Shown here: positions 1,485-45,558 of the stretch, piece by piece
Layout: every line of letters begins with the position of its first letter
Numbering within the stretch: position 1 is the first letter of the stretch
Origin: an uncultured Chlamydiae bacterium
GTDB taxonomy: Bacteria; Chlamydiota; Chlamydiia; Chlamydiales; Parachlamydiaceae
Reading direction: 5' to 3'
Assembly (NCBI GenBank): GCA_963754655.1
Contig: CAVWGN010000001.1
Coordinates: 288,001-352,000, forward strand
Length of the DNA: 64,000 bases
Program-made: the position numbers and the translations under genes
The notes under the pieces: generated by a model
The model's database searches: none
Seen by the model: the letters and a program-made list of their open reading frames with translations, nothing else
Told to the model about the DNA's origin: nothing

Positions 1485-1825
1485 AGCCTTGAATCATCAC
1501 AGTATAAAGCTGAAACAAAAATCTCTTAATTGAAGGTAGTCTATCAGAGAAATCAATTTTTGATGACTCAATTGATTTCTATTACACTGGAATTAGGTTA
1601 AATTTTGCCTATTGAATTTTGAATAGACTTTCTCTATCTCAGCAAACAAGAATAAGGCGAGTCTTAAAAATTGCAATTGTCTTGGATAATTACAAGCTCC
1701 CTCTTGATGAAAGAGTGGTAAAAACTTATAATAAGAAAAGACAGTTATTTTCTCAGGTGTCAATTTATTAAAACTTAATTTTTAAAATTAATGAATACAT
1801 CAACTATTAAATTTCATTTCCTATT

Positions 1826-35177: not shown

Positions 35178-35529
35178 CCGCCCGGTTTGCGAAATCATTT
35201 CTGCCGGCTGTGATATTTTTCTTATCTCGAAAGGCATGTGTGAACTCATGCCTTATGCGGTTTCTAGAGTCCTGCCCGGAACAGTCGCCGGTTGCCCGGC
35301 TTCCAATCGGCGATGGAACCGATCTAGAAGAATGCTTTTTACTTGGCTAAAAGGCATGATTCGCCCGATGGTGTCATCGCCAACTCTTATGTAAAAGGAG
35401 TTGTCCATTCATGCAATAGAGGATGAGCATATATTTTGCTTGAAAGGTGACGGGGTTTGTGGCACGCTGGATCTGTTTCTATTTAAAAAATTGAGTTAAA
35501 GCTTGTTTGGAAGGGGAAGGGAACTTGTT

Positions 35530-37182
35530 ATGTTAGTAGACGACTATGAAGAATTTACGGAAAGTCAAATTAAGTTATTAAAACGCTATGTTACAAATTC
35601 TTCTAGCCACATTTTTGTTTTGCGCAATTTGCCGGAAGTCATTAAAGGGGCTCTTTTTTCGCGTTATTCACGCTCAAATCTGGGATTGCGTACGCTTTTG
35701 CTTAAAGAATTTATCACCAATAATGATGAAGCTGCTTTTGAGTCAATTGTAGGGAAAGTTGCAGCCGATGATGAAGAGCGGCAAGCTCACGAACAGATAG
35801 ATTCCATTAAAAAAGCCCAAGCTTTTTATGATCGCATTTTGGATGGATATGGGGATGATTCAATTGGCGAGTTAGGGGGCGCACATTTAGCCATTGAAAA
35901 TATTTCGATGATTGCAGCTAAGCTATTAGAAGATAGCCGCATTGGTGGTTCTCCTTTAGAGAAATCGACACGTTATATTTATTTCGATCAGAAAGTCAAG
36001 GGTGAATATCTCTTTTATCGAGAACCTATTCTTATGACATCGGCTTATCGCGACAAATATGTCGATACCTGCAATATGTTGTTTGAAACTTATAGTCGTT
36101 TAATTCCTCCTATGACAACAGTGATGGAACAATGTTTTCCTAAAGATCCTTTGATTTCTAAAACTGCCTATACAGCAGCTTTGCGAGCAAAAGTGCTGGA
36201 TTGCCTGCGTGGTTTATTGCCAGCTGGGACATTGACTAATATGGGTATTTATGGCAATGGCCGTTTCTTTGAGCAGCTAATTCACAAATTGCACTGCCAA
36301 AATCTTGCTGAATTGCAAGAAATTGGCAAACGAAGCTATGAAGAGCTTGCCAAGGTCATTCCTTCTTTTGTGCGGCGTGCAAATCCAACTCATCGCTCAC
36401 ATCAAAACTATGCTCAATTTTATGAGACGATGCAATCCGAGCTCAAGCTCATTGGGGAGCAACATTTACCTGATTGCCAGCGTTCCTTGCAAACTGGAGT
36501 CAAATTGATTTCTTATGACTCCGATGCAGTCTCTCATGTCGCTGCTGCTCTTTTATTCGCCATTAGCAATAAAGGATTGCCGGAACTTAGACAATATTGC
36601 AAAAAATTGTCTGATGAAGAGATTGCGCGTATTCTTGACGCCGGTTGCAATGCGCGTGAAAATCGTCGTCATAAATCTCCTAGGGCCTTGGAACATGCTA
36701 ACTTCACTTTTGAGATTGTCACCGATTTTGGTGTCTATCGTGATTTGCATCGTCATCGAATGTTAACACAGGAGCGCCAATTCTTGTGTTGTGATTATGG
36801 ATTTTATATTCCGCCTGAAATCAAAGAGACGTCTTATGAAGAAGAATATCGTGATGCTCTTCAACAAGCAAAAGAAGTCTATGATTTGATCGCAGCTGAA
36901 TTGCCAGAAGAAGCTCAATATGTGGTTCCAATGGCGTATCATATTCGCTGGTATTTCCATGTTAATTTGCGGGCTTTACAATGGCTATGTGAATTACGCT
37001 CTTCGCCTGCTGGTCATCCAAGCTATCGATATATCGCTCAGATCATGGCTCGGCAAGTCTGCGATCTCTTCCCGGCATTTGAACGTTTCTTTAAGTTTTT
37101 GGATTATGAAGGCTATGAACTAGGTCGTTTGGAACAAGAACAGCGCAAATTCAATAAGCAGCAGCAGTCTTTATCCCTTTAA
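35530..37182 (+). CDS. thyX: Flavin-dependent thymidylate synthase, long tandem-domain chlamydial type
   Basis: YGDDSIGELG, EKSTRY, RDLHRHR and QERQ; about 550 aa with two ThyX-like halves. Confidence 0.93.
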   Translation: MLVDDYEEFTESQIKLLKRYVTNSSSHIFVLRNLPEVIKGALFSRYSRSNLGLRTLLLKEFITNNDEAAFESIVGKVAADDEERQAHEQIDSIKKAQAFYDRILDGYGDDSIGELGGAHLAIENISMIAAKLLEDSRIGGSPLEKSTRYIYFDQKVKGEYLFYREPILMTSAYRDKYVDTCNMLFETYSRLIPPMTTVMEQCFPKDPLISKTAYTAALRAKVLDCLRGLLPAGTLTNMGIYGNGRFFEQLIHKLHCQNLAELQEIGKRSYEELAKVIPSFVRRANPTHRSHQNYAQFYETMQSELKLIGEQHLPDCQRSLQTGVKLISYDSDAVSHVAAALLFAISNKGLPELRQYCKKLSDEEIARILDAGCNARENRRHKSPRALEHANFTFEIVTDFGVYRDLHRHRMLTQERQFLCCDYGFYIPPEIKETSYEEEYRDALQQAKEVYDLIAAELPEEAQYVVPMAYHIRWYFHVNLRALQWLCELRSSPAGHPSYRYIAQIMARQVCDLFPAFERFFKFLDYEGYELGRLEQEQRKFNKQQQSLSL

Positions 37183-37444
37183 CTTTATCCCTTTAAATTG
37201 CTTCCTTTGTTAGCTTAAATTAGGATGTTGTTTATAAATCCAACTATGCTTAATGCGTATGCAGCCAGCGTCGCTAAGTAGCAAAAAAAACTCAACTATA
37301 GGGGTCTGAAACACTATAAGAGAGCAATTTTGTTTAAAGTCTAGCCTACGACTTGAGGTGAGCTATTTTATGCCATCTGTGAGCCATTTTGAGCCATCTT
37401 TTCGCAAACTGAAAAATTTTGAGAGAAAAGCATTTTTTTATTTA

Positions 37445-37473
37445 TTGACATCTTAAAATCGGTTAATTATGCT
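37445..37473 (+). promoter_or_regulatory. Sigma70-type (sigma66) promoter
   Basis: TTGACA-17 nt-TATGCT upstream of the ORF at 37566. Confidence 0.65.
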
Positions 37474-37565
37474 CTTATTCTTTAAGCACAACCAAAAAGG
37501 AGGCAAGATCCCAAAAATCAATTGTTGAATCATTTTTTCACACCACTTAACTAAGGATTTACAAA

Positions 37566-38108
37566 ATGAAAAAACTACAAAAGAAATTATTTAATATATT
37601 TGCTGCATCTGCATTAATGTTTCTTGTTAACCCTTTAGTTCAAGCAGTAGATTGTTCTAAATCTACGGAAGCTCACCCTTATTCTTACTTGCAGGAATAC
37701 CCTTGGTTGGGACTCATTATGAATGAAGTCACCTATGGTCCAATTACGTTATCTGATATCCGCCTTAATGAAGGAAGTTCGCTCGCAATTGTAAAACCTG
37801 GTGAAATTGTTAATGGAGAATTAAAATACCGGGTCGATTCTAGTCATCAAGAAGCGTTCCATCGATATCACTTAGTTGTGGGTCTCAAAGGATTTGGAGC
37901 ACAAGATTGTGTCACCCATACATGGGGTATTTGGGACAGCAGTGGCAAGGGGAGTTTTACCCTTAAAGCGCCTCTAGAACCAGGATTATACGAAGTGCGT
38001 TTTGTTTATCATGAGGCTCCAACTTGTGAAGAAGCACGCAGCGTATGGAATAGTGAAAGTGGAGAACCTTCAAGTTTTGCTACAATTGGAGCAATCATTG
38101 TTGAATAA
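37566..38108 (+). CDS. Secreted hypothetical protein (beta-rich, Ig-like)
   Basis: Signal peptide ending in VQA; C-terminal GSFTLKAPLEPGLYEVRFVY. Confidence 0.75.
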   Translation: MKKLQKKLFNIFAASALMFLVNPLVQAVDCSKSTEAHPYSYLQEYPWLGLIMNEVTYGPITLSDIRLNEGSSLAIVKPGEIVNGELKYRVDSSHQEAFHRYHLVVGLKGFGAQDCVTHTWGIWDSSGKGSFTLKAPLEPGLYEVRFVYHEAPTCEEARSVWNSESGEPSSFATIGAIIVE

Positions 38109-38249
38109 TCGCGTTCTCCGCCCAGTGGATAGTCCATACGGGCTATCCCTTCTCCTCTCTTCTTGCCACATTCCCTTTGTTCGATTGAAAAAAAAGTCGA
38201 CTAAAAAAATTAAATTGCTTAATATATGTTTATTAAAAGATGTTATCGT

Positions 38250-38306
38250 ATGATAAGTGCAATTTTTTTTCATCCTAGCTTTTTTTTCTTTTTTTGGTGG
38301 CGCTAG
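38250..38306 (+). promoter_or_regulatory. Putative Phe/Trp-sensing leader peptide MISAIFFHPSFFFFFWWR*
   Basis: ATG at 38250; 7 Phe codons (5 consecutive), then TGG TGG CGC TAG; ends 100 bp upstream of tyrP-tyrP-trpS. Confidence 0.7.
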
Positions 38307-38406
38307 CCACTAACTATTCTTTTGCGTTTATATTTTTCTTTAAATTTCATTCTTAATCGGCGGCTCGAAAGGCTGGCTCAAACCAAATTTTTATCGTAGG
38401 ATCATC

Positions 38407-39597
38407 ATGAATGTTCAGTCCATTCGTAAGGGAAGCTTATTAGGTGGCACTTTGCTAGTGGCAGGCTGCTGCATTGGGGCCGGGATGCTTGGCTTACCCG
38501 TTTTAAGTGCTCAAGCAGGTTTTCAACCTTCTATTGTCATGTTTTTTCTTTGCTGGCTTTTTATGGTTTGCACGGGATTGCTGCTGTTAGAAGTCAATCT
38601 TTGGTATGGTGAAGAAATTAGCATCATTACAATGGCGGGGCGTACCTTGGGAAGGGGAGGGAAAGTGGTCAGTTGGTTGGTCTTTCTTTTTCTTTTTTAT
38701 TCTTTGATGATTGCCTATGTGGCAGCCAGTGGATCGCTGATCACTGATTTTATTGGAGAAATGACGGGCCATTATTGGCATCAGGCTTTCGGTGGTTTGC
38801 TGTTTTGTGTGCTTTTTGGAATTTTGCTCTATTTAGGTACGGGAGCGGTGGATTGGTTTAATCGACTGCTTATGTTGGGGCTTGTGTTGTCTTATGTGAG
38901 TTTAGTGGTTGTCGGTTCTTCACATGTCAATTCTGAACTTTTGAAGCATCAGGATTGGACAGCTGCTACAATGGTTATTCCTGCGGTGATTGTTTCTTTT
39001 GGCTTTCATAATTTAGTTCCTAGCTTGACAACTTATTTTCACTGTCAGATTAAGCCATTAAAATGGTCTATCATTTTGGGAAGCGCGATTCCTCTTGCCA
39101 TTTATTTGATTTGGGAATGGATCATTTTAGGCATTGTTCCCCTTCAAGAATTCAAAGCAGCTTTGGATCAAGGAGAAATTGCCACCGAAGCACTTAAGAA
39201 TGCTGTGGGGGCTTCTTGGGTTGTCGATGTGGCGCAAGCGTTTGCCTTTTTTGCGATTTTGACTTCCTTTTTAAGCGTGGCCTTAAGTTTTATCGATTTT
39301 TTAGCCGATGGGTTGAATATAAAAAAGACTCCTAAAGGAAAGGTGATATTGACTTTGCTCGTCTTAGGTCCTCCTTTCTTATGTGCATTGCTTTATCCCG
39401 CTATCTTCTTGATTGCATTGAATACGGCTGGAGGATTTGGAGCAGTGATTTTATTTGGAATTTTGCCGGCTCTCATGGTGTGGAAAGGGCGTTATACTCA
39501 GAAATTAGGTCATCCTGAATTAGTGCCTGGAGGCAAGCCCTTGTTGATTCTCATTATTGGATTTGCTGTCGGAGTTATGGCCTTACAATTTGTTTAA
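38407..39597 (+). CDS. tyrP: Aromatic amino acid permease (TyrP/Mtr family), copy 1
   Basis: GGTLLVAGCCIGAGMLGLP, SFGFHNLVPSL and FFAILTSFL. Confidence 0.93.
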   Translation: MNVQSIRKGSLLGGTLLVAGCCIGAGMLGLPVLSAQAGFQPSIVMFFLCWLFMVCTGLLLLEVNLWYGEEISIITMAGRTLGRGGKVVSWLVFLFLFYSLMIAYVAASGSLITDFIGEMTGHYWHQAFGGLLFCVLFGILLYLGTGAVDWFNRLLMLGLVLSYVSLVVVGSSHVNSELLKHQDWTAATMVIPAVIVSFGFHNLVPSLTTYFHCQIKPLKWSIILGSAIPLAIYLIWEWIILGIVPLQEFKAALDQGEIATEALKNAVGASWVVDVAQAFAFFAILTSFLSVALSFIDFLADGLNIKKTPKGKVILTLLVLGPPFLCALLYPAIFLIALNTAGGFGAVILFGILPALMVWKGRYTQKLGHPELVPGGKPLLILIIGFAVGVMALQFV

Positions 39598-39617
39598 TCA
39601 TTAGTATAATAGGAATT

Positions 39618-40862
39618 ATGAAGACAACTCACCGCCTAATAGGAGGCGTTTTATTGGTGTCCGGTACTACGATTGGAGCCGGAATGCTTGCATTACCTAT
39701 TGTCACAGGATTTGCTGGCTTTTGGCCATCCATCGTCCTTTTCATTATTTACTGGTTGTATATGACTTTCACGGCTTTTCTTATGCTAGAAGTCAATTTG
39801 TGGATGGAAGAGCATACTAATCTTATCACAATGGCAAAAAGAACTTTAGGGAGAGGCGGCCAAATTTTCAGTTGGATCATTTACCTTTTCTTGCTCTATA
39901 CGTTGACAACCGCTTATCTGGCTGGCGGCGGTCCCATTTTCATTGAAGCAATTGAAGCATTCACTGGTTGGCAATTTCCCGCTTGGGTCAATCCTTTTCC
40001 CTTGTTGATTATTTTTGGATTTTTTGTCTATCAGGGCGCTCAGTCAGTCGATGTTGTGAATCGTTTGCTCATGCTAGGTTTAGCCATTTCTTATGTCTTG
40101 ATGGTTGTTTTTTTGACTCCTCATGTTCAAGGATCATTATTGACGCATGCGAACTGGCCAGCGGTTTGGATGGCTGTATCCATTGTCTCGACATCCTTTG
40201 GCTTTCACATCATCATCCCCACGCTGACTGACTATTTACATCGCGATGTTAAACAACTGAGGTTGGTTTTAATCATTGGAAGTTTAATTCCCCTGTTTGT
40301 CTATATCAGCTGGGAATTGTTAACATTAGGAATTATTCCTTTGCAAGGTTCGACAGGGCTTGCAGAAGGCTATCAAAAAGGGATTGATGGAGCGACTTTG
40401 CTAGGGATCTACTTGGGGCAAACTGAACTGAGCTTACTTGCTCGCCTTTTTTCTCTCTTTGCCATTGTGACTTCCTTTTTAGGTGTTTCTTTGAGCTTGC
40501 GCGACTTCTTAGCTGATGGATTGAGAATTCAAAAGACCCAAAAAGGGCGTTTAGTGCTCTATTTATTGACATTTGTTCCTCCTTTGGCCATTACGTTGAT
40601 TGATCCCCGTGCCTTTTTAAATGCGCTTGAATATGCAGGAGCATTTGGTGTGGTGACGCTACTCGGATTGTTTCCCGTTCTCATGGTTTGGAGAGGACGC
40701 TATGTGCAGCAACGAACAGGAGAATTTCGCACTCCTGGAGGACAATGGACATTGGCTATTGCTCTTGTGATTTCCCTTGCTGTTATTGGACTAGAAATTG
40801 CCAGCAAAACTAATTATTTAACCTTTTTTTCTTCTAATTTAGAAAAAGTGAGTCAACCATGA
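39618..40862 (+). CDS. tyrP: Aromatic amino acid permease (TyrP/Mtr family), copy 2
   Basis: [30 protein letters not shown] and [10 protein letters not shown]. Confidence 0.93.
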
Positions 40863-41911
40863 CAGAAAAAAAACGCATCCTGACTGGAGATCGTCCCACA
40901 GGAAATTTGCATCTGGGTCACTGGGTAGGTTCGATTAAAAATCGAGTGGCTCTACAAGATCAGTACGACTGTTACTTTATTATTGCTGATTTACATACGT
41001 TGACGACAAAACCACAAAAAGAAAACATCTTGCAACTTAGGGATTTTGCCCGTAGCATGGTTCTTGATTACTTAGCTTGTGGTATTGATCCCAAGAAATC
41101 CACTATTTATTTGCAATCAGCAACACCAGCTGTTTACGAAATGAATCTTATCTTTGAAATGCTTATTTCATTCAATCGCCTATCAGGTTTACCTAGCATC
41201 AAAGAAATGGCGCGCAACGCCCATTTGGATAGCGATCATGTTCCTTTTGGATTGATTGGTTATCCCGTTTTGCAAACAGCTGATATTTTGATGCCCCGTG
41301 CTCATTTGGTTCCCGTTGGCAAGGATAATGAAGCTCATATTGAATTGGCACGCGATATTGCGCGTCGCTTTAACCAGTATTATGGTGAAGTCTTCCCTTT
41401 ACCTGATGCCATGTTAAGCGAAACACCTACTTTGATTGGTACAGATGCTAAAGGGAAAATGAGCAAATCAGCGCAAAATGCAATTTTCCTTTCCGATGAT
41501 GCCCATACAGTGGAAAAAAAGGTTAAGGGAATGTATACCGATCCCAATCGCATCCACGCCCATCTGCCTGGAACAGTTGAAGGAAATCCCGTTTTTATTT
41601 ACCACGATATTTTCAATCCACGGCGAGAAGAGATCGAAGATCTCAAGAGGCGTTATCGTGAAGGAAAAGTGGGCGATGTAGAAGTCAAAGCAAAGCTCAT
41701 CGTTGCCCTTAATGAATTCCTTGATCCTATCCGTGAACGTCGTAAAATCTTTGAAAATGAAAAGGGATTAGTAGAAGAAATCATCTACAATGGAACAGAA
41801 AAGATGAATGAAATTTCGCAAGCTACTCTCAAAGAAATGCGCAGTGCGATGGGATTGGGAGGAGCCTGGAATAAAATTTCACGCATGGCACGGGAACGGA
41901 AGAAAAATTGA
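40859..41911 (+). CDS. trpS: Tryptophan--tRNA ligase
   Basis: [29 protein letters not shown] and KMSKS; ATGA overlap with the second permease. Confidence 0.98.
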
Positions 41912-42096
41912 GTATGTAAGCAATATCTATAAATAATTGATTTAAAAATAGAATTTGTAGTATATTAATTGTTAACTATTTTCTTATTTAGATCAAAAAT
42001 AAGGATTTTAATTCTAATTAAATTTTTGATTTGTGAATGATTTAATAAAGAGATTAAAATTAGGGGAAATATCCAATTTTTAGAGGAAAGATTTGA

Positions 42097-43392
42097 ATGC
42101 AAAATCAAGAAGAAAAGAAATTAGAAGATTTTAGCCTTCCGCAACTTAATATTTTACTTAAACATTTGCGCATGGGGCAAGATCATTTGAAACTTCTGTT
42201 AACTCCTAAGCAGCTTAAAGATTTATTTCACTGGTGTGATTTAGAGAAAGAAGAAAAAAAGCAAATTTCTGCTGATAGGATTGAAAAGCTGGGCAATATG
42301 TCTTTGATTATTAATACCATCTTAACGAGTACTTTTGGAGCTTGGATGGGATTGTCTGGATGTATAGGATGTACAATAGGTTCTTATAAAATGTTAGCAT
42401 TTATTTCTATGATTGCTTTCTGTGTCAGCACCTTGATTGGGTATATGAGTTTGAAAATGACAAAGAAACAAGCGTGGAATGCCATTCAAAATCAAGTGAT
42501 CCATCAATTTCAATTACGTGTTCTCAAAATGATCAATCAAAAAATGAAAGAAAAAGAAAATTCTGTCGTTTTTTACCTTCATACTGCAATTTGTATTTTG
42601 GAAAATAACAACACAAATAATAATGAGCAAAATCGTTTGAATTTATTTGAGAATAGTTCTCAGGCTTATCAATGGTATGAGAAATTGATGAGTGTGTTAA
42701 ATGATCGCTTAAAAGAAATGAAAGATACTATCTCAACTGAAATTTATCAAAAACAAATCCAACGGGTGAATTTTCTTATTAAAAAAACGCTAGCTAAGCA
42801 TACCCATTTTTTGGAAAGCTTAGCCATGGCTAAGCAACAAGAAAAAAAACGACAACAAATGATGCCTGCTCTTTCATTTTTCAAAATTTTAACTAATCCC
42901 TCTTTTGGTATTCCTAAATACAGATCTTTAACTCCCACCTCTGGCTCTGGGATCAAAAAACATTTCAATCAATTATTGTTAGGAATCATTCCCACTATTT
43001 GGGGAGGATTTGCTTCTATGTTTGTATTTGTTGGAGGGATTCCCAATCTTGCAGGTGAGCTCAAATTTTTATGGTTACACTCTCTTTTGATCTCTCCCTT
43101 TGCTCGCGCGATTGAAATTTCTTTGGCAGGTCTTATGACGTGTTATTTTGCTTTTGCCTTTTTTTACTCCTCTAGAAAAAATTGGCAAAGGCAGCAATTA
43201 CTAGAACAAATTAAAAAAGAAATTGCCAATGAAGAGGCACGTTTATTAGAAAATAATCATAAACTTGATATGTTATTTAAATTAAAAATGCATACACAGA
43301 AATTAATTTCTAATTTCACTGTTGTAAAAAAAATGGATCAAAAATTCATGAGTCAAGATCGTTCTTTAGTCTCTGAAAACTATTTAAACTAA
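42097..43392 (+). CDS. Hypothetical protein with two paired hydrophobic regions and coiled coils (Inc-like)
   Basis: Two bilobed hydrophobic segments separated by K/Q/N-rich helices; AT-rich. Confidence 0.7.
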   Translation: MQNQEEKKLEDFSLPQLNILLKHLRMGQDHLKLLLTPKQLKDLFHWCDLEKEEKKQISADRIEKLGNMSLIINTILTSTFGAWMGLSGCIGCTIGSYKMLAFISMIAFCVSTLIGYMSLKMTKKQAWNAIQNQVIHQFQLRVLKMINQKMKEKENSVVFYLHTAICILENNNTNNNEQNRLNLFENSSQAYQWYEKLMSVLNDRLKEMKDTISTEIYQKQIQRVNFLIKKTLAKHTHFLESLAMAKQQEKKRQQMMPALSFFKILTNPSFGIPKYRSLTPTSGSGIKKHFNQLLLGIIPTIWGGFASMFVFVGGIPNLAGELKFLWLHSLLISPFARAIEISLAGLMTCYFAFAFFYSSRKNWQRQQLLEQIKKEIANEEARLLENNHKLDMLFKLKMHTQKLISNFTVVKKMDQKFMSQDRSLVSENYLN

Positions 43393-43536
43393 ACACCTAT
43401 TTTGATGGAATGTGATACACAAATGAGTGTCCATAAATCCTTGATTCATCTGATTTAAAGTGGTATTCTATTAGAAATAATTCAGCATGGTTCAAAAAGA
43501 GCGAATTTTCTGATTTGATTGATAAATAAGGTGAAC

Positions 43537-45558
43537 ATGGCTAAGGCAAATTTATTTAAATTACATACAGAATTTGAACCAAAGGGTGATCAACCCGAAG
43601 CTATTGAGAAGCTTTCTACTGGAATATTGCAAAATAAACGCGCGCAGGTTTTATTGGGCATTACGGGTTCAGGTAAAACTTTTACAATGGCCAATGTCAT
43701 TGCTAAGGTGCAACGACCGACTTTGATTTTAGCCCATAATAAAACGTTGGCTGCCCAGCTTTATCAAGAGTTCAAGACTTTTTTCCCTGAAAATGCCGTT
43801 GAATACTTTGTCTCTTACTATGACTATTATCAGCCAGAAGCTTATGTGCCACGCACTGATACTTACATTGAAAAAGATATGGCGATCAATGACAAGATCG
43901 ATAAGATGCGCTTAAGTGCGACGCGTTCGTTACTTGAGCGCTCGGATGTCATTATTGTCTCTTCTGTTTCTTGTATCTATGGTTTGGGCTCGCCTGAATA
44001 TTATCGTGGCATGAATTTAACTTTATCTGTGGGGCAAGAAAGACGACGCGATGATCTTTTATTACATCTTGTCGAAATGCAGTATAAGCGTAATGACTTT
44101 GAATTTGTGCGTGCGACTTTTCGCGTACGGGGGGATAGTCTGGATATCTTTCCCGCTTATGAAGAAGACCTTGCTATTCGCGTCGAAATGTTTGGCGATG
44201 AAATTGAGCAAATCAGCGAAATTGATCCTCTAACTGGAAAACTCAAAAGGCGTATCCCCTCTATCACCATTTATCCTAGTTCACACCACGTGACTCCCGA
44301 AGAAGTGCGCTTGCATGCTCTTCAGACGATTCAGGCTGAATTAGAAGAACGGAAGCTTTTTTACGAAAAAGAGAAACAACACTTAGAGTTAGAGCGCATT
44401 CAACAGCGGACAATGTACGATTTAGAAATGTTGCGTGAAGTGGGCACATGCAAAGGCGTGGAGAACTATTCGCGACACTTTAGTATGCGACAACCAGGTC
44501 AACCTCCTCCTTGTTTATTGGACTATTTTCCGTCAGATTACCTATTGGTCATCGATGAATCACATCAAACGCTTCCTCAATTACATGCCATGTTTAATGG
44601 AGACAGAGCGCGCAAACAAACTCTTGTTGACTTTGGTTTTCGTTTGCCTTCCGCTTTCGATAATCGTCCTCTGCGCTTTGAAGAAGTTTATGGACGTATG
44701 CATCAAGTCGTTTATGTGTCAGCAACTCCTGGGTCTTGGGAGGTTCTTGAAGCACAAGGAGAAATTGTCGAGCAAGTGATTCGTCCTACCGGACTATTGG
44801 ATCCCATTATCGAAGTGAGGCCCGCCTCTGGGCAGGTGGATGATTGCTTGGCTGAAATTCGTGCACATGTTAGTAAAGGGGGACGAGTTTTAGTGACGAC
44901 GCTGACTAAAAAAATCTCTGAGGAGTTAACAGCCTATCTTAATGATCTCAATGTTAAAGCCAAGTATTTACACTCCGATATTGATACAATTGAACGGGTG
45001 CAAATTATCCGTGATCTACGCTTTGGCGAATTTGATGTACTTGTTGGAATTAACCTCTTAAGAGAAGGGTTGGATATTCCTGAAGTCTCGCTTGTCGCTA
45101 TTTTGGATGCAGATAAAGAGGGTTTTTTGCGTAGTGAAACTTCTTTGATTCAGACTTGCGGTCGTGCAGCACGCAATGCCGAAGGACGCGTCATCATGTA
45201 TGCCGATAAAATCACTAAATCTATTCAGCGGACATTAGATATTACGCAGACACGTCGTATTCATCAAGAAGAATATAATCGCTTGCATAGCATTACGCCA
45301 CGGACTGTAAAACGGGAAATTTCAGTACTCGTAGAGCCTGATGAAGATCAAGTTGCTTATCCTTCCGCATTTGAGGACAAACTGTTGCGGGCAGCCGAAG
45401 CTCAACATCATTATTTGACTCTCGATGAAGTGCGGCAAAAAATCAAGGAATGCGACATTGAAATGCGTAAAGCAGCCAAAGAAATGCGTTTTGAAGATGC
45501 TGCTGAATGGCGCGATAAAATGCGTCACTTCCAACAAATTGAGTTGACATTGGCTTAG
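43537..45558 (+). CDS. uvrB: Excinuclease ABC subunit B
   Basis: [26 protein letters not shown] and GRAARN; C-terminal UVR domain. Confidence 0.99.

Follow-up and report, generated by a model that had tools for sequence, protein, structure and literature searches.

What adjusts the import of tryptophan (Trp, W) and the charging of its tRNA to supply in a Trp auxotroph that is amoeba-associated and lives inside host cells? The question is raised by a short open reading frame (ORF) that ends 100 nucleotides (nt) before two genes for aromatic amino acid permeases, tyrP1 and tyrP2, and trpS, the gene for tryptophanyl-tRNA synthetase (TrpRS), in an uncultured chlamydial bacterium of the family Parachlamydiaceae. 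The 64,000-nt stretch that was analysed, here called the window, comprises positions 288,001 to 352,000 of the forward strand of contig CAVWGN010000001.1 (GenBank assembly GCA_963754655.1), and its own numbering is used throughout for this locus. An earlier note on this DNA had read the ORF as a leader peptide that senses starvation for both phenylalanine (Phe, F) and Trp. From sequence comparison we consider it probable that the ORF is the leader of a ribosome-mediated attenuator that senses the charging of Trp-tRNA and sets the transcription of tyrP1-tyrP2-trpS. That part of the note which placed a leader peptide with regulatory Trp codons before these genes is supported, given that 16 genera of the family and four other families have retained the ORF, its ATG, the W codon or codons near its end and an overlapping hairpin.

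The leader open reading frame and its hairpin

Read directly from the window, the leader ORF consists of 18 codons and a stop (ATG ATA AGT GCA ATT TTT TTT CAT CCT AGC TTT TTT TTC TTT TTT TGG TGG CGC TAG), and its translation is MISAIFFHPSFFFFFWWR. The reading of the ORF in the earlier note, with its end in Trp-Trp-Arg (WWR) and a stop and with its distance from tyrP-tyrP-trpS, was confirmed from the window sequence. Codons of the regulatory type stand near the end, TGG TGG being codons 16 and 17 of the 18, while Phe makes up 7 of the 18 residues and five Phe codons lie within 15 nt of the stem of the hairpin. This hairpin, TTGGTGGC-GCTA-GCCACTAA (coordinates in Table 1), includes one G-T pair and carries both TGG codons in its 5' arm, and the TAG of the leader extends from the loop into the 3' arm by one base. 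Folding predicts -11.9 kcal/mol for the hairpin, and none of 200 dinucleotide shuffles was as stable. The note had placed a hairpin on the WWR and stop codons; it is there, and with 8 pairs it is longer than first described.

The genome to which the window belongs (3.16 Mb, 38.8% G+C, two contigs, 96.7% complete) contains 56,649 ATG ORFs of 8-40 codons, nested ones included. WW is present in 157 of these, and WW together with at least four Phe in nine, at seven places. The pattern GGTGGC-N2-8-GCCAC has a single occurrence in the genome. The string TTTTGGTGGC alone is uninformative, as 12 of its 22 occurrences fall within a dispersed repeat. The possibility that the hairpin is a repeated element or a general motif was ruled out, since it is unique in the genome and the covariance model described below matches one place per genome. 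The leader feature exceeds chance, and its conservation in relatives is a stronger argument than its rarity within the genome.

Conservation among relatives

The earlier note had proposed to look upstream of tyrP in relatives for a short ORF with Trp codons, and such an ORF is present in 24 of 51 genomes of the family and in four other families. The family set comprised 73 Parachlamydiaceae genomes, in 72 of which a best TyrP1 match was found; the regions upstream of tyrP1 were examined for 52 of them, and one was cut by a contig end, which left 51 that could be read. In the 24 genomes, which represent the 16 genera, an ATG ORF of 15-30 codons with a terminal W or WW on a hairpin stands before the tyrP1 orthologue, the W or WW lying 1-10 codons before the stop and the hairpin beginning on a W codon. 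Two of the 51 (G001 and G048) retain the T-run and the hairpin with an ORF that is broken by in-frame stops or has no start, and the other 25 carry no trace of a leader, thyX reaching tyrP1 in several. Two metagenome contigs add two leaders (L052 and L054). Scans for TyrP1 over genome contigs and metagenomes yielded 26 and 23 loci, respectively, mostly distant paralogues or genomes already covered.

A strict detector, which accepts an ATG ORF of 14-32 codons with W in the last 12 residues, at least two Phe, and a hairpin of -6 kcal/mol or lower that includes the W codon, was positive at 21 of 57 tyrP1 loci. The controls gave 148 of 6000 random 403-nt windows of the organism's own genome (four with WW), 2 of 57 reverse complements and 23 of 1140 shuffles, that is 2-3.5%; the relatives are not independent, so that kinship inflates all counts and these contrasts are not probabilities.

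A covariance model was built from 26 leaders and run on 151 genomes sampled from the order, only six of which were from the family. It gave four matches in four other families (G032, G171, G214 and G204), each directly upstream of a tyrP homologue. Given that the model is blind to reading frame, the state of the ORFs in these families is a fair independent test. All four elements contain an intact ORF that runs from ATG through W to a stop, with WW in three of the four, and two of them stand just after thyX. On the 73 family genomes the model gave 24 matches in 23 genomes, 22 of the matches at tyrP1 and never two at tyrP genes of one genome; it added no new family genome, and it missed the weak true leaders of G047 and G083. 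No match was obtained in 27 genomes (1.0-1.2 Mb) of family f35 in a class-level sample. Four further matches (L131, L133, L134 and G077:C1:1241839) were set aside as not leaders or unclear. Separately, L132 (G151, of another family; 1501-1580, minus strand of the locus) presents a T-run and a hairpin TTTTGTGCC-CACA-GGCACAAAA in which TGT replaces TGG, and precedes a 413-residue ORF that is not TyrP; the model may have matched it by chance, or it may be a related element that uses a different codon.

The two copies with damaged ORFs have the appearance of decay. In G001 (L080, 1401-1480), which is of the same genus as our organism, TTTTTTTGGTGGC and a wobble-rich stem are kept, and a TAA interrupts the frame three codons ahead of the TGGs. 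In G048 (L076) the stem has changed to TTGGCGC-13 nt-GCGCCAA, and the only TGG is preceded in frame by a double stop. The ancestral order was likely thyX - leader - tyrP1 - tyrP2 - trpS, the leader having been lost repeatedly.

Hairpin, spacer and promoter across leaders

Over 30 leaders the hairpin energy averages -8.5 kcal/mol, compared with -4.65 kcal/mol for shuffles and -3.0 kcal/mol for neighbouring windows (mean z -2.0), and in 17 of the 30 no more than 10 of 200 shuffles were as stable as the native hairpin. The stems differ among lineages (GGTGGC/GCCAC, TGGCC/GGCCA, TTGGCG/CGCTAA and GGTGCC/GCACC), and the loops measure 3-6 nt, or 13 nt in the decayed G048 copy. Such variation in stem sequence and loop length favours RNA pairing over a protein-binding palindrome. 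The stems start at different offsets and the loops differ in length; the support for the hairpin is per sequence and not from column-wise covariation.

The tract after the hairpin had been called G-poor in the earlier note, and this is borne out by a count of 2 G in 38314-38358. Over 26 leaders the spacer has a C:G ratio of 438:289 and 41% T, and those leaders that have no T tract beside the stem have C-rich, G-poor sequence there instead. The note had also seen no clear intrinsic terminator. A simple terminator rule does flag the window hairpin with its tail CTATTCTTTT, so that the statement cannot stand as worded; the doubt behind it does, the tail being unconvincing as a terminator tract. 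In 15 of the 26 leaders at least six T occur in some 8-nt window within 12 nt after the stem, which we estimate to be hardly above expectation at 41% T.

We found no second hairpin common to the leaders by consensus folding, nor one common to the same-genus pair formed by our genome (G000) and G002, and constrained folding of 25 leaders with the W region masked gave no consistent alternative hairpin. An antiterminator, or sequestration of the tyrP1 ribosome-binding site, was therefore rejected as a candidate: the predicted accessibility of that site went from 0.46 to 0.45 on masking of the W region, and in none of the 25 leaders did it shift by more than 0.15.

The best promoter-like site in the window, with 8 of 12 hexamer matches, predicts a transcription start at ~38232, 17-18 nt 5' of the leader ATG, and so a 5' untranslated end of ~17 nt, which contains no Shine-Dalgarno sequence. 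A start downstream of 38250, which the note had named as a refutation, is not suggested by the sequence, the promoter-like site being upstream of the ATG. A block AAAAA-(G/T)TCG(A/C)CT-AAAAA with a -10-like hexamer recurs in G002, G020 and G048, and a distance of 6-9 nt separates the end of the -10-like hexamer from the ATG in G047, G046, G077, G058, G013, G088 and G020 (the last by eye). The leader mRNA is probably leaderless in several relatives, to judge from this placement. The proposal in the note that the ORF may be translated leaderless consequently fits those relatives; in the window itself the predicted site would leave the short 5' end just described.

Proposed attenuation at tryptophan codons

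The favoured mechanism, direct occlusion of the one shared hairpin, is the simplest reading and can be set out as follows. Transcription would start at or shortly before the leader ATG. With ample Trp-tRNA, the ribosome would pass TGG TGG, reach the stop codon, which lies in or just after the hairpin, and depart. The hairpin would then form behind a polymerase slowed in the T-rich tail, and most transcripts would end as a leader RNA of ~75-90 nt. With scarce Trp-tRNA, the ribosome would stall with TGG in the A site, and its footprint, at the established size, would occupy the 5' arm and block the hairpin. Without the hairpin, the polymerase would continue into tyrP1-tyrP2-trpS and thereby raise Trp import and charging capacity. 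Stalling at the Phe codons just upstream could act alike, and is not required. No separate antiterminator is needed in such a scheme, because the sensing codons form part of the terminator stem.

Several observations weigh against this mechanism. A design with a single hairpin needs a polymerase that lingers near the hairpin if Trp is to matter, and the terminator rule is met in only 10 of 26 leaders, by our estimate about what a T content of 41% in the spacer gives. Terminator-like sites are not enriched in the 20 kb around the locus (23 compared with 18.4 +/- 4.3), the leader site ranking first among them. RNAalifold on 26 W-anchored leaders gives no consensus structure, and a fixed 8-pair register on a model-made alignment is 46.8% paired, no better than with shuffles or slid partners; the hairpins of four leaders (L085, L100, L103 and L118) are weak. 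The element is dispensable, since roughly half of the family carries this operon without a leader, and thyX then often adjoins tyrP1 directly. Two relatives keep a T-run and hairpin beside a stopped or startless ORF.

The phenylalanine codons

Given that the earlier note had proposed a dual Phe/Trp leader, we examined the composition of the 30 leader peptides, which together comprise 623 residues. W is present in 30 of 30, in tandem in 18, and accounts for 8.2% of residues where 1% is expected from base composition. Phe accounts for 21.8% where 11% is expected, and TTY codons number 136 in the leader frame compared with 100 and 96 in the other two frames. The residue before W is Phe in 24 of the 30, as read by eye from the listing, and Glu is absent altogether. 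Phe varies from 1 to 7 per leader. Without any insertion or deletion, 7 of the 18 residues have changed between the leaders of G000 and G002. The stem determines which residues follow WW (as where ...GC CAC is read as x-His), so that these reflect the RNA and not the peptide. Apart from W, the F in front of it and the hairpin, nothing is kept among leaders, and the remainder of the peptide drifts.

A dual sensor would report the charging of both Phe-tRNA and Trp-tRNA, in the manner of the multi-amino-acid leaders thrL and ilvL. The enrichment of Phe, the excess of in-frame TTY codons and the Phe before W speak for such a leader, and the Phe codons lie within the ribosome footprint of the 5' arm of the hairpin. 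In addition, the permease family carries aromatic amino acids, and prephenate dehydratase was not found in the genome, so that Phe import is probably also needed. On the other hand, intact leaders with only one or two Phe exist (G047 and mgL054), and Phe codons are therefore unnecessary for the persistence of a leader; the last gene of the operon is trpS and not pheS or pheT; the Us before TGG pair in the stem in some leaders (TTGG.../...CTAA), and T-richness raises Phe in every frame, both of which can account for part of the enrichment. The enrichment and the frame bias are modest, and the frame bias is weak evidence, the relatives not being independent. The proposal of the note is supported as to the Trp codons and only in part as to Phe, the codons for which are dispensable in some relatives. 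We regard dual sensing as a tentative proposition, and on balance a doubtful one.

Alternative mechanisms

The route from leader to operon might instead be Rho-dependent termination, as the note had suggested, in which 60-130 nt of untranslated, T-rich RNA with more C than G would load Rho once the ribosome has left the stop codon, and the polymerase would halt before translation of tyrP1; a ribosome stalled at TGG would mask the start of the loading site, as in tnaC or speFL. The composition of the spacer is suggestive of this, as are the C-rich, G-poor tails of leaders that have no T tract; rho is present in the genome, and for Chlamydia the available part of PMC7755916 reports polarity that depends on Rho and follows stalling at Trp codons. 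Such a mechanism would leave the hairpin on the W codons, the one conserved structure, without a role. The bias of C over G is modest (18% C, 12% G), and a ribosome with TGG in its A site covers only ~13 nt downstream, by the established footprint, which leaves nearly the whole loading site free. Moreover, rho reads in two frames in this assembly, perhaps through assembly error. This route seems unlikely to us.

The rho homologue in question (TIGR00767; G000:C1:3108174-3109325) matches model positions 58-167 in one frame and 141-411 in another, with no single match over the family cut-off, so that it is either a frameshifted gene or a homopolymer assembly error. Homopolymer errors would also bear on the T-runs of the leader; the leader ORFs of G000 and G002 agree in length.

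A mechanism of the opposite sign was also considered, in which stalling at TGG would open the hairpin and uncouple translation from transcription, and Trp starvation would lower transcription of tyrP-trpS, leaving the operon expressed only in the presence of Trp. Downstream transcription in C. trachomatis is terminated when ribosomes stall at Trp codons (PMC7755916, in the part available), and Bonner et al. argue, in the accessible text of PMC3937554, that Trp-rich transporters are tuned for being made when Trp is plentiful. The leader ORF, however, stops 1-10 codons past W, and the RNA downstream is untranslated with or without stalling. To our knowledge, all characterised amino acid leaders (the trp, his, leu, thr and pheST attenuators) run against shutdown during shortage, and closing off Trp import and TrpRS when Trp is short would contradict every one of them. 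We think this sign very improbable.

It is hardly probable at all that the ORF is incidental and the element an untranslated one, be it an operator palindrome or a T-run and hairpin to which a protein or a tRNA binds. G001, with its in-frame TAA, and G048, with its double stop and no start, do keep the T-run and the hairpin, and TGG, having no synonymous variation, cannot reveal coding through codon drift. Yet 30 of 32 elements have an ATG ORF with in-frame TGG and a stop within 1-10 codons, far from the rate in the detector controls; the variable stem and loop length are a poor fit to a fixed operator; no Rfam family matches, T-box included; and both exceptions look decayed, their stops being in frame with remnants of the ORF.

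Finally, a functional small hydrophobic protein, for example a permease accessory subunit, is extremely improbable as the product: the peptides are hydrophobic and aromatic, have no Glu and are always encoded beside a membrane transporter gene, but with 15-30 residues, no conservation beyond F-W(W), a floating stop and C-terminal residues set by the stem sequence, none is long or conserved enough to suggest a membrane helix.

Comparison with known leaders

The preferred reading, attenuation by stalling at the Trp codons, invites comparison with TrpL, which in E. coli also ends in WWR. TrpL attenuators of Enterobacteria and alpha-proteobacteria make up the Rfam family Trp_leader. An Rfam cmscan of 37000-44000 at E values up to 10 returned only four chance matches to snoRNA and SmY families, and neither Trp_leader nor T-box. 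The chlamydial leader resembles TrpL in its short ORF (14-30 codons), in tandem Trp near the stop, in its place in the 5' leader of a Trp-related operon, in the position of the Trp codons in the 5' strand of a hairpin, and in the proposed signal, stalling for lack of Trp-tRNA. It differs in that no antiterminator/terminator pair was found, only one hairpin being common to the leaders, in a U tract that is weak or absent, in an mRNA that is probably leaderless in several relatives, and in preceding permeases and TrpRS rather than genes of biosynthesis, a pathway that the organism lacks. The last point separates it also from leaders of the PheL type (pheA, pheST), which precede genes for Phe biosynthesis or PheRS. 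Its proposed logic is that of TrpL, while no antiterminator and no counterpart in Rfam were found.

The T-box of Firmicutes offers a regulon of trpS and Trp transporters in which uncharged tRNA-Trp raises TrpRS and Trp uptake; there, however, tRNA binds an RNA of ~200 nt, and the region between the chlamydial hairpin and tyrP1 is only ~90 nt and unstructured. The E. coli pyrBI leader has a single terminator hairpin in or at the end of the leader ORF, with a U-rich tract upstream of it, and a closely following ribosome that physically prevents the hairpin with no antiterminator. Its signal is UTP-dependent pausing of the polymerase and not tRNA charging, and its stem has no regulatory codons. 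With TnaC and SpeFL the chlamydial leader has in common a short ORF towards the end of which the ribosome stalls, or here would stall, and a long, G-poor, untranslated spacer between this ORF and the first gene. Those two respond to a free small molecule by way of a nascent peptide that is conserved, whereas the chlamydial peptide drifts and the conserved feature is the codon with its hairpin.

Within the phylum, a putative trpL has been placed in the trpR-trpB spacer of Chlamydia felis and C. trachomatis (PMC3937554, and Merino and Yanofsky 2005 cited there). In the available text of the former, these peptides have 40-59 residues, lie inside the trpRBA operon and are unproven. The C. felis peptide, going by the pattern as printed in the part of PMC3937554 available, ends in a Phe-rich stretch and WW like the window leader. 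Pokorzynski et al. state, in the part of PMC7755916 available, that the putative trpL of C. trachomatis may be degenerate, and the same part describes the experimental demonstration, at C. trachomatis ytgCR, that stalling at tandem Trp codons is coupled to transcription termination. Bonner, Byrne and Jensen (2014) describe a tandem "Group C" tyrP pair beside a synthetase gene, there written tyrS, and the only leader peptides mentioned in the accessible portion of their paper (PMC3937554) are those of C. felis and C. trachomatis, in the spacer between trpR and trpB. We found no description of a leader before tyrP or trpS in chlamydiae in the literature searched, subscription journals being outside its coverage.

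The operon and its surroundings

Table 1. Features of the leader region and operon in window coordinates
Feature	Position	Strand	Basis or detail
Putative promoter	38188..38225	+	A8 at 38188-38195; -35-like TCGACT at 38197-38202; 17-nt spacer; -10-like TAATAT at 38220-38225
Leader ORF, MISAIFFHPSFFFFFWWR	38250..38306	+	Start ATG at 38250, stop TAG at 38304-38306; window reading and orthologous ORFs in relatives
Run of five Phe codons directly 5' of the Trp codons	38280..38294	+	Two further Phe codons at 38265-38270
Tandem TGG TGG, proposed sensing codons	38295..38300	+	W at the same place in 30/30 leaders
Attenuator hairpin (putative)	38294..38313	+	5' arm TTGGTGGC at 38294-38301; loop GCTA at 38302-38305; 3' arm GCCACTAA at 38306-38313
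T-rich, G-poor untranslated spacer	38314..38397	+	T-rich tail CTATTCTTTT at 38314-38323; more T runs
AGGA, likely ribosome-binding site of tyrP1	38398..38401	+	5 nt 5' of the tyrP1 ATG
tyrP1, aromatic amino acid permease, Trp_Tyr_perm, 396 residues	38407..39597	+	PF03222, 362 bits; TIGR00837, 334 bits, below cut-off of 350
tyrP2, paralogous permease, 414 residues	39618..40862	+	Pfam Trp_Tyr_perm; 45% identical to tyrP1
trpS, tryptophan--tRNA ligase, 350 residues	40859..41911	+	TIGR00233, 319 bits, cut-off 177; Pfam tRNA-synt_1b

Both permeases are aromatic amino acid transporters by NCBIfam, with scores under every substrate-specific cut-off. In nearly all family genomes that have both on one contig, trpS lies 3' of tyrP1 or of tyrP1-tyrP2. 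In the window the ATG of trpS overlaps the stop of tyrP2 (ATGA, 40859-40862), which suggests translational coupling of permease and TrpRS. Neither trpB nor prephenate dehydratase was found in the organism's own genome, at its completeness of 96.7%; each family was detected in 14 of 14 control genomes. It follows from these absences that the organism must import Trp, and probably Phe also.

Two further tyrP paralogues are present in the genome (C1:2690103-2691236 and C1:2471908-2473092), with no W-rich short ORF upstream of either. One of them directly follows the end of a glmS-like gene, which is the conserved glmS-tyrP neighbourhood described in the available text of Bonner et al. (PMC3937554).

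On the 5' side of the leader region lies thyX (35503-37182, 559 residues), the ORF of which matches the 191-position Thy1 profile in two stretches and so appears to encode a ThyX that is either extended or doubled. The leader or tyrP1 comes immediately after thyX in relatives. Our genome alone has, between thyX and the leader, an ORF of 180 residues (37566-38108) with no Pfam or NCBIfam family, followed on its 3' side by a hairpin at ~38120-38143 with a C/T-rich tail; the segment 37566-38143 looks like an insertion into the thyX-leader junction. The dispersed repeat mentioned above occurs 12 times on C1 and C2 (C1:554997, C1:2392750 and C2:34445 among others), and 70 nt around GATCTTTTGGTGGCCTTCC are identical in all copies. 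It is probably an insertion sequence, and one copy is on the 35-kb second contig.

Implications

Trp supply is the central nutritional axis of chlamydial biology, through depletion of Trp by the host and persistence, and the sensing of amino acid shortage by chlamydiae is only partly understood. The leader gives a concrete candidate for a Trp sensor in environmental chlamydial lineages, and it is regulatory evidence that ties this tyrP pair to tryptophan. The putative trpL of animal-pathogenic Chlamydia is likewise Phe-rich and ends in WW, a likeness that suggests a leader type of common ancestry.

More specifically, and as a conjecture that we advance with considerable reserve, the leader may be an ancestral attenuator of chlamydiae in minimal form: its one regulatory hairpin has the sensing codons as 5' arm, the transcript that carries it is probably leaderless, and a ribosome that stalls for Trp-tRNA, perhaps also for Phe-tRNA, occludes that hairpin with no antiterminator. 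A design as small as this, consisting of a promoter, ~20 codons and one hairpin, could show how attenuation works without an antiterminator. If the conjecture is true, the leader would be the first direct sensor of amino acid starvation described for environmental chlamydiae, and it would mark TyrP1 and TyrP2 as the Trp importers of these organisms.

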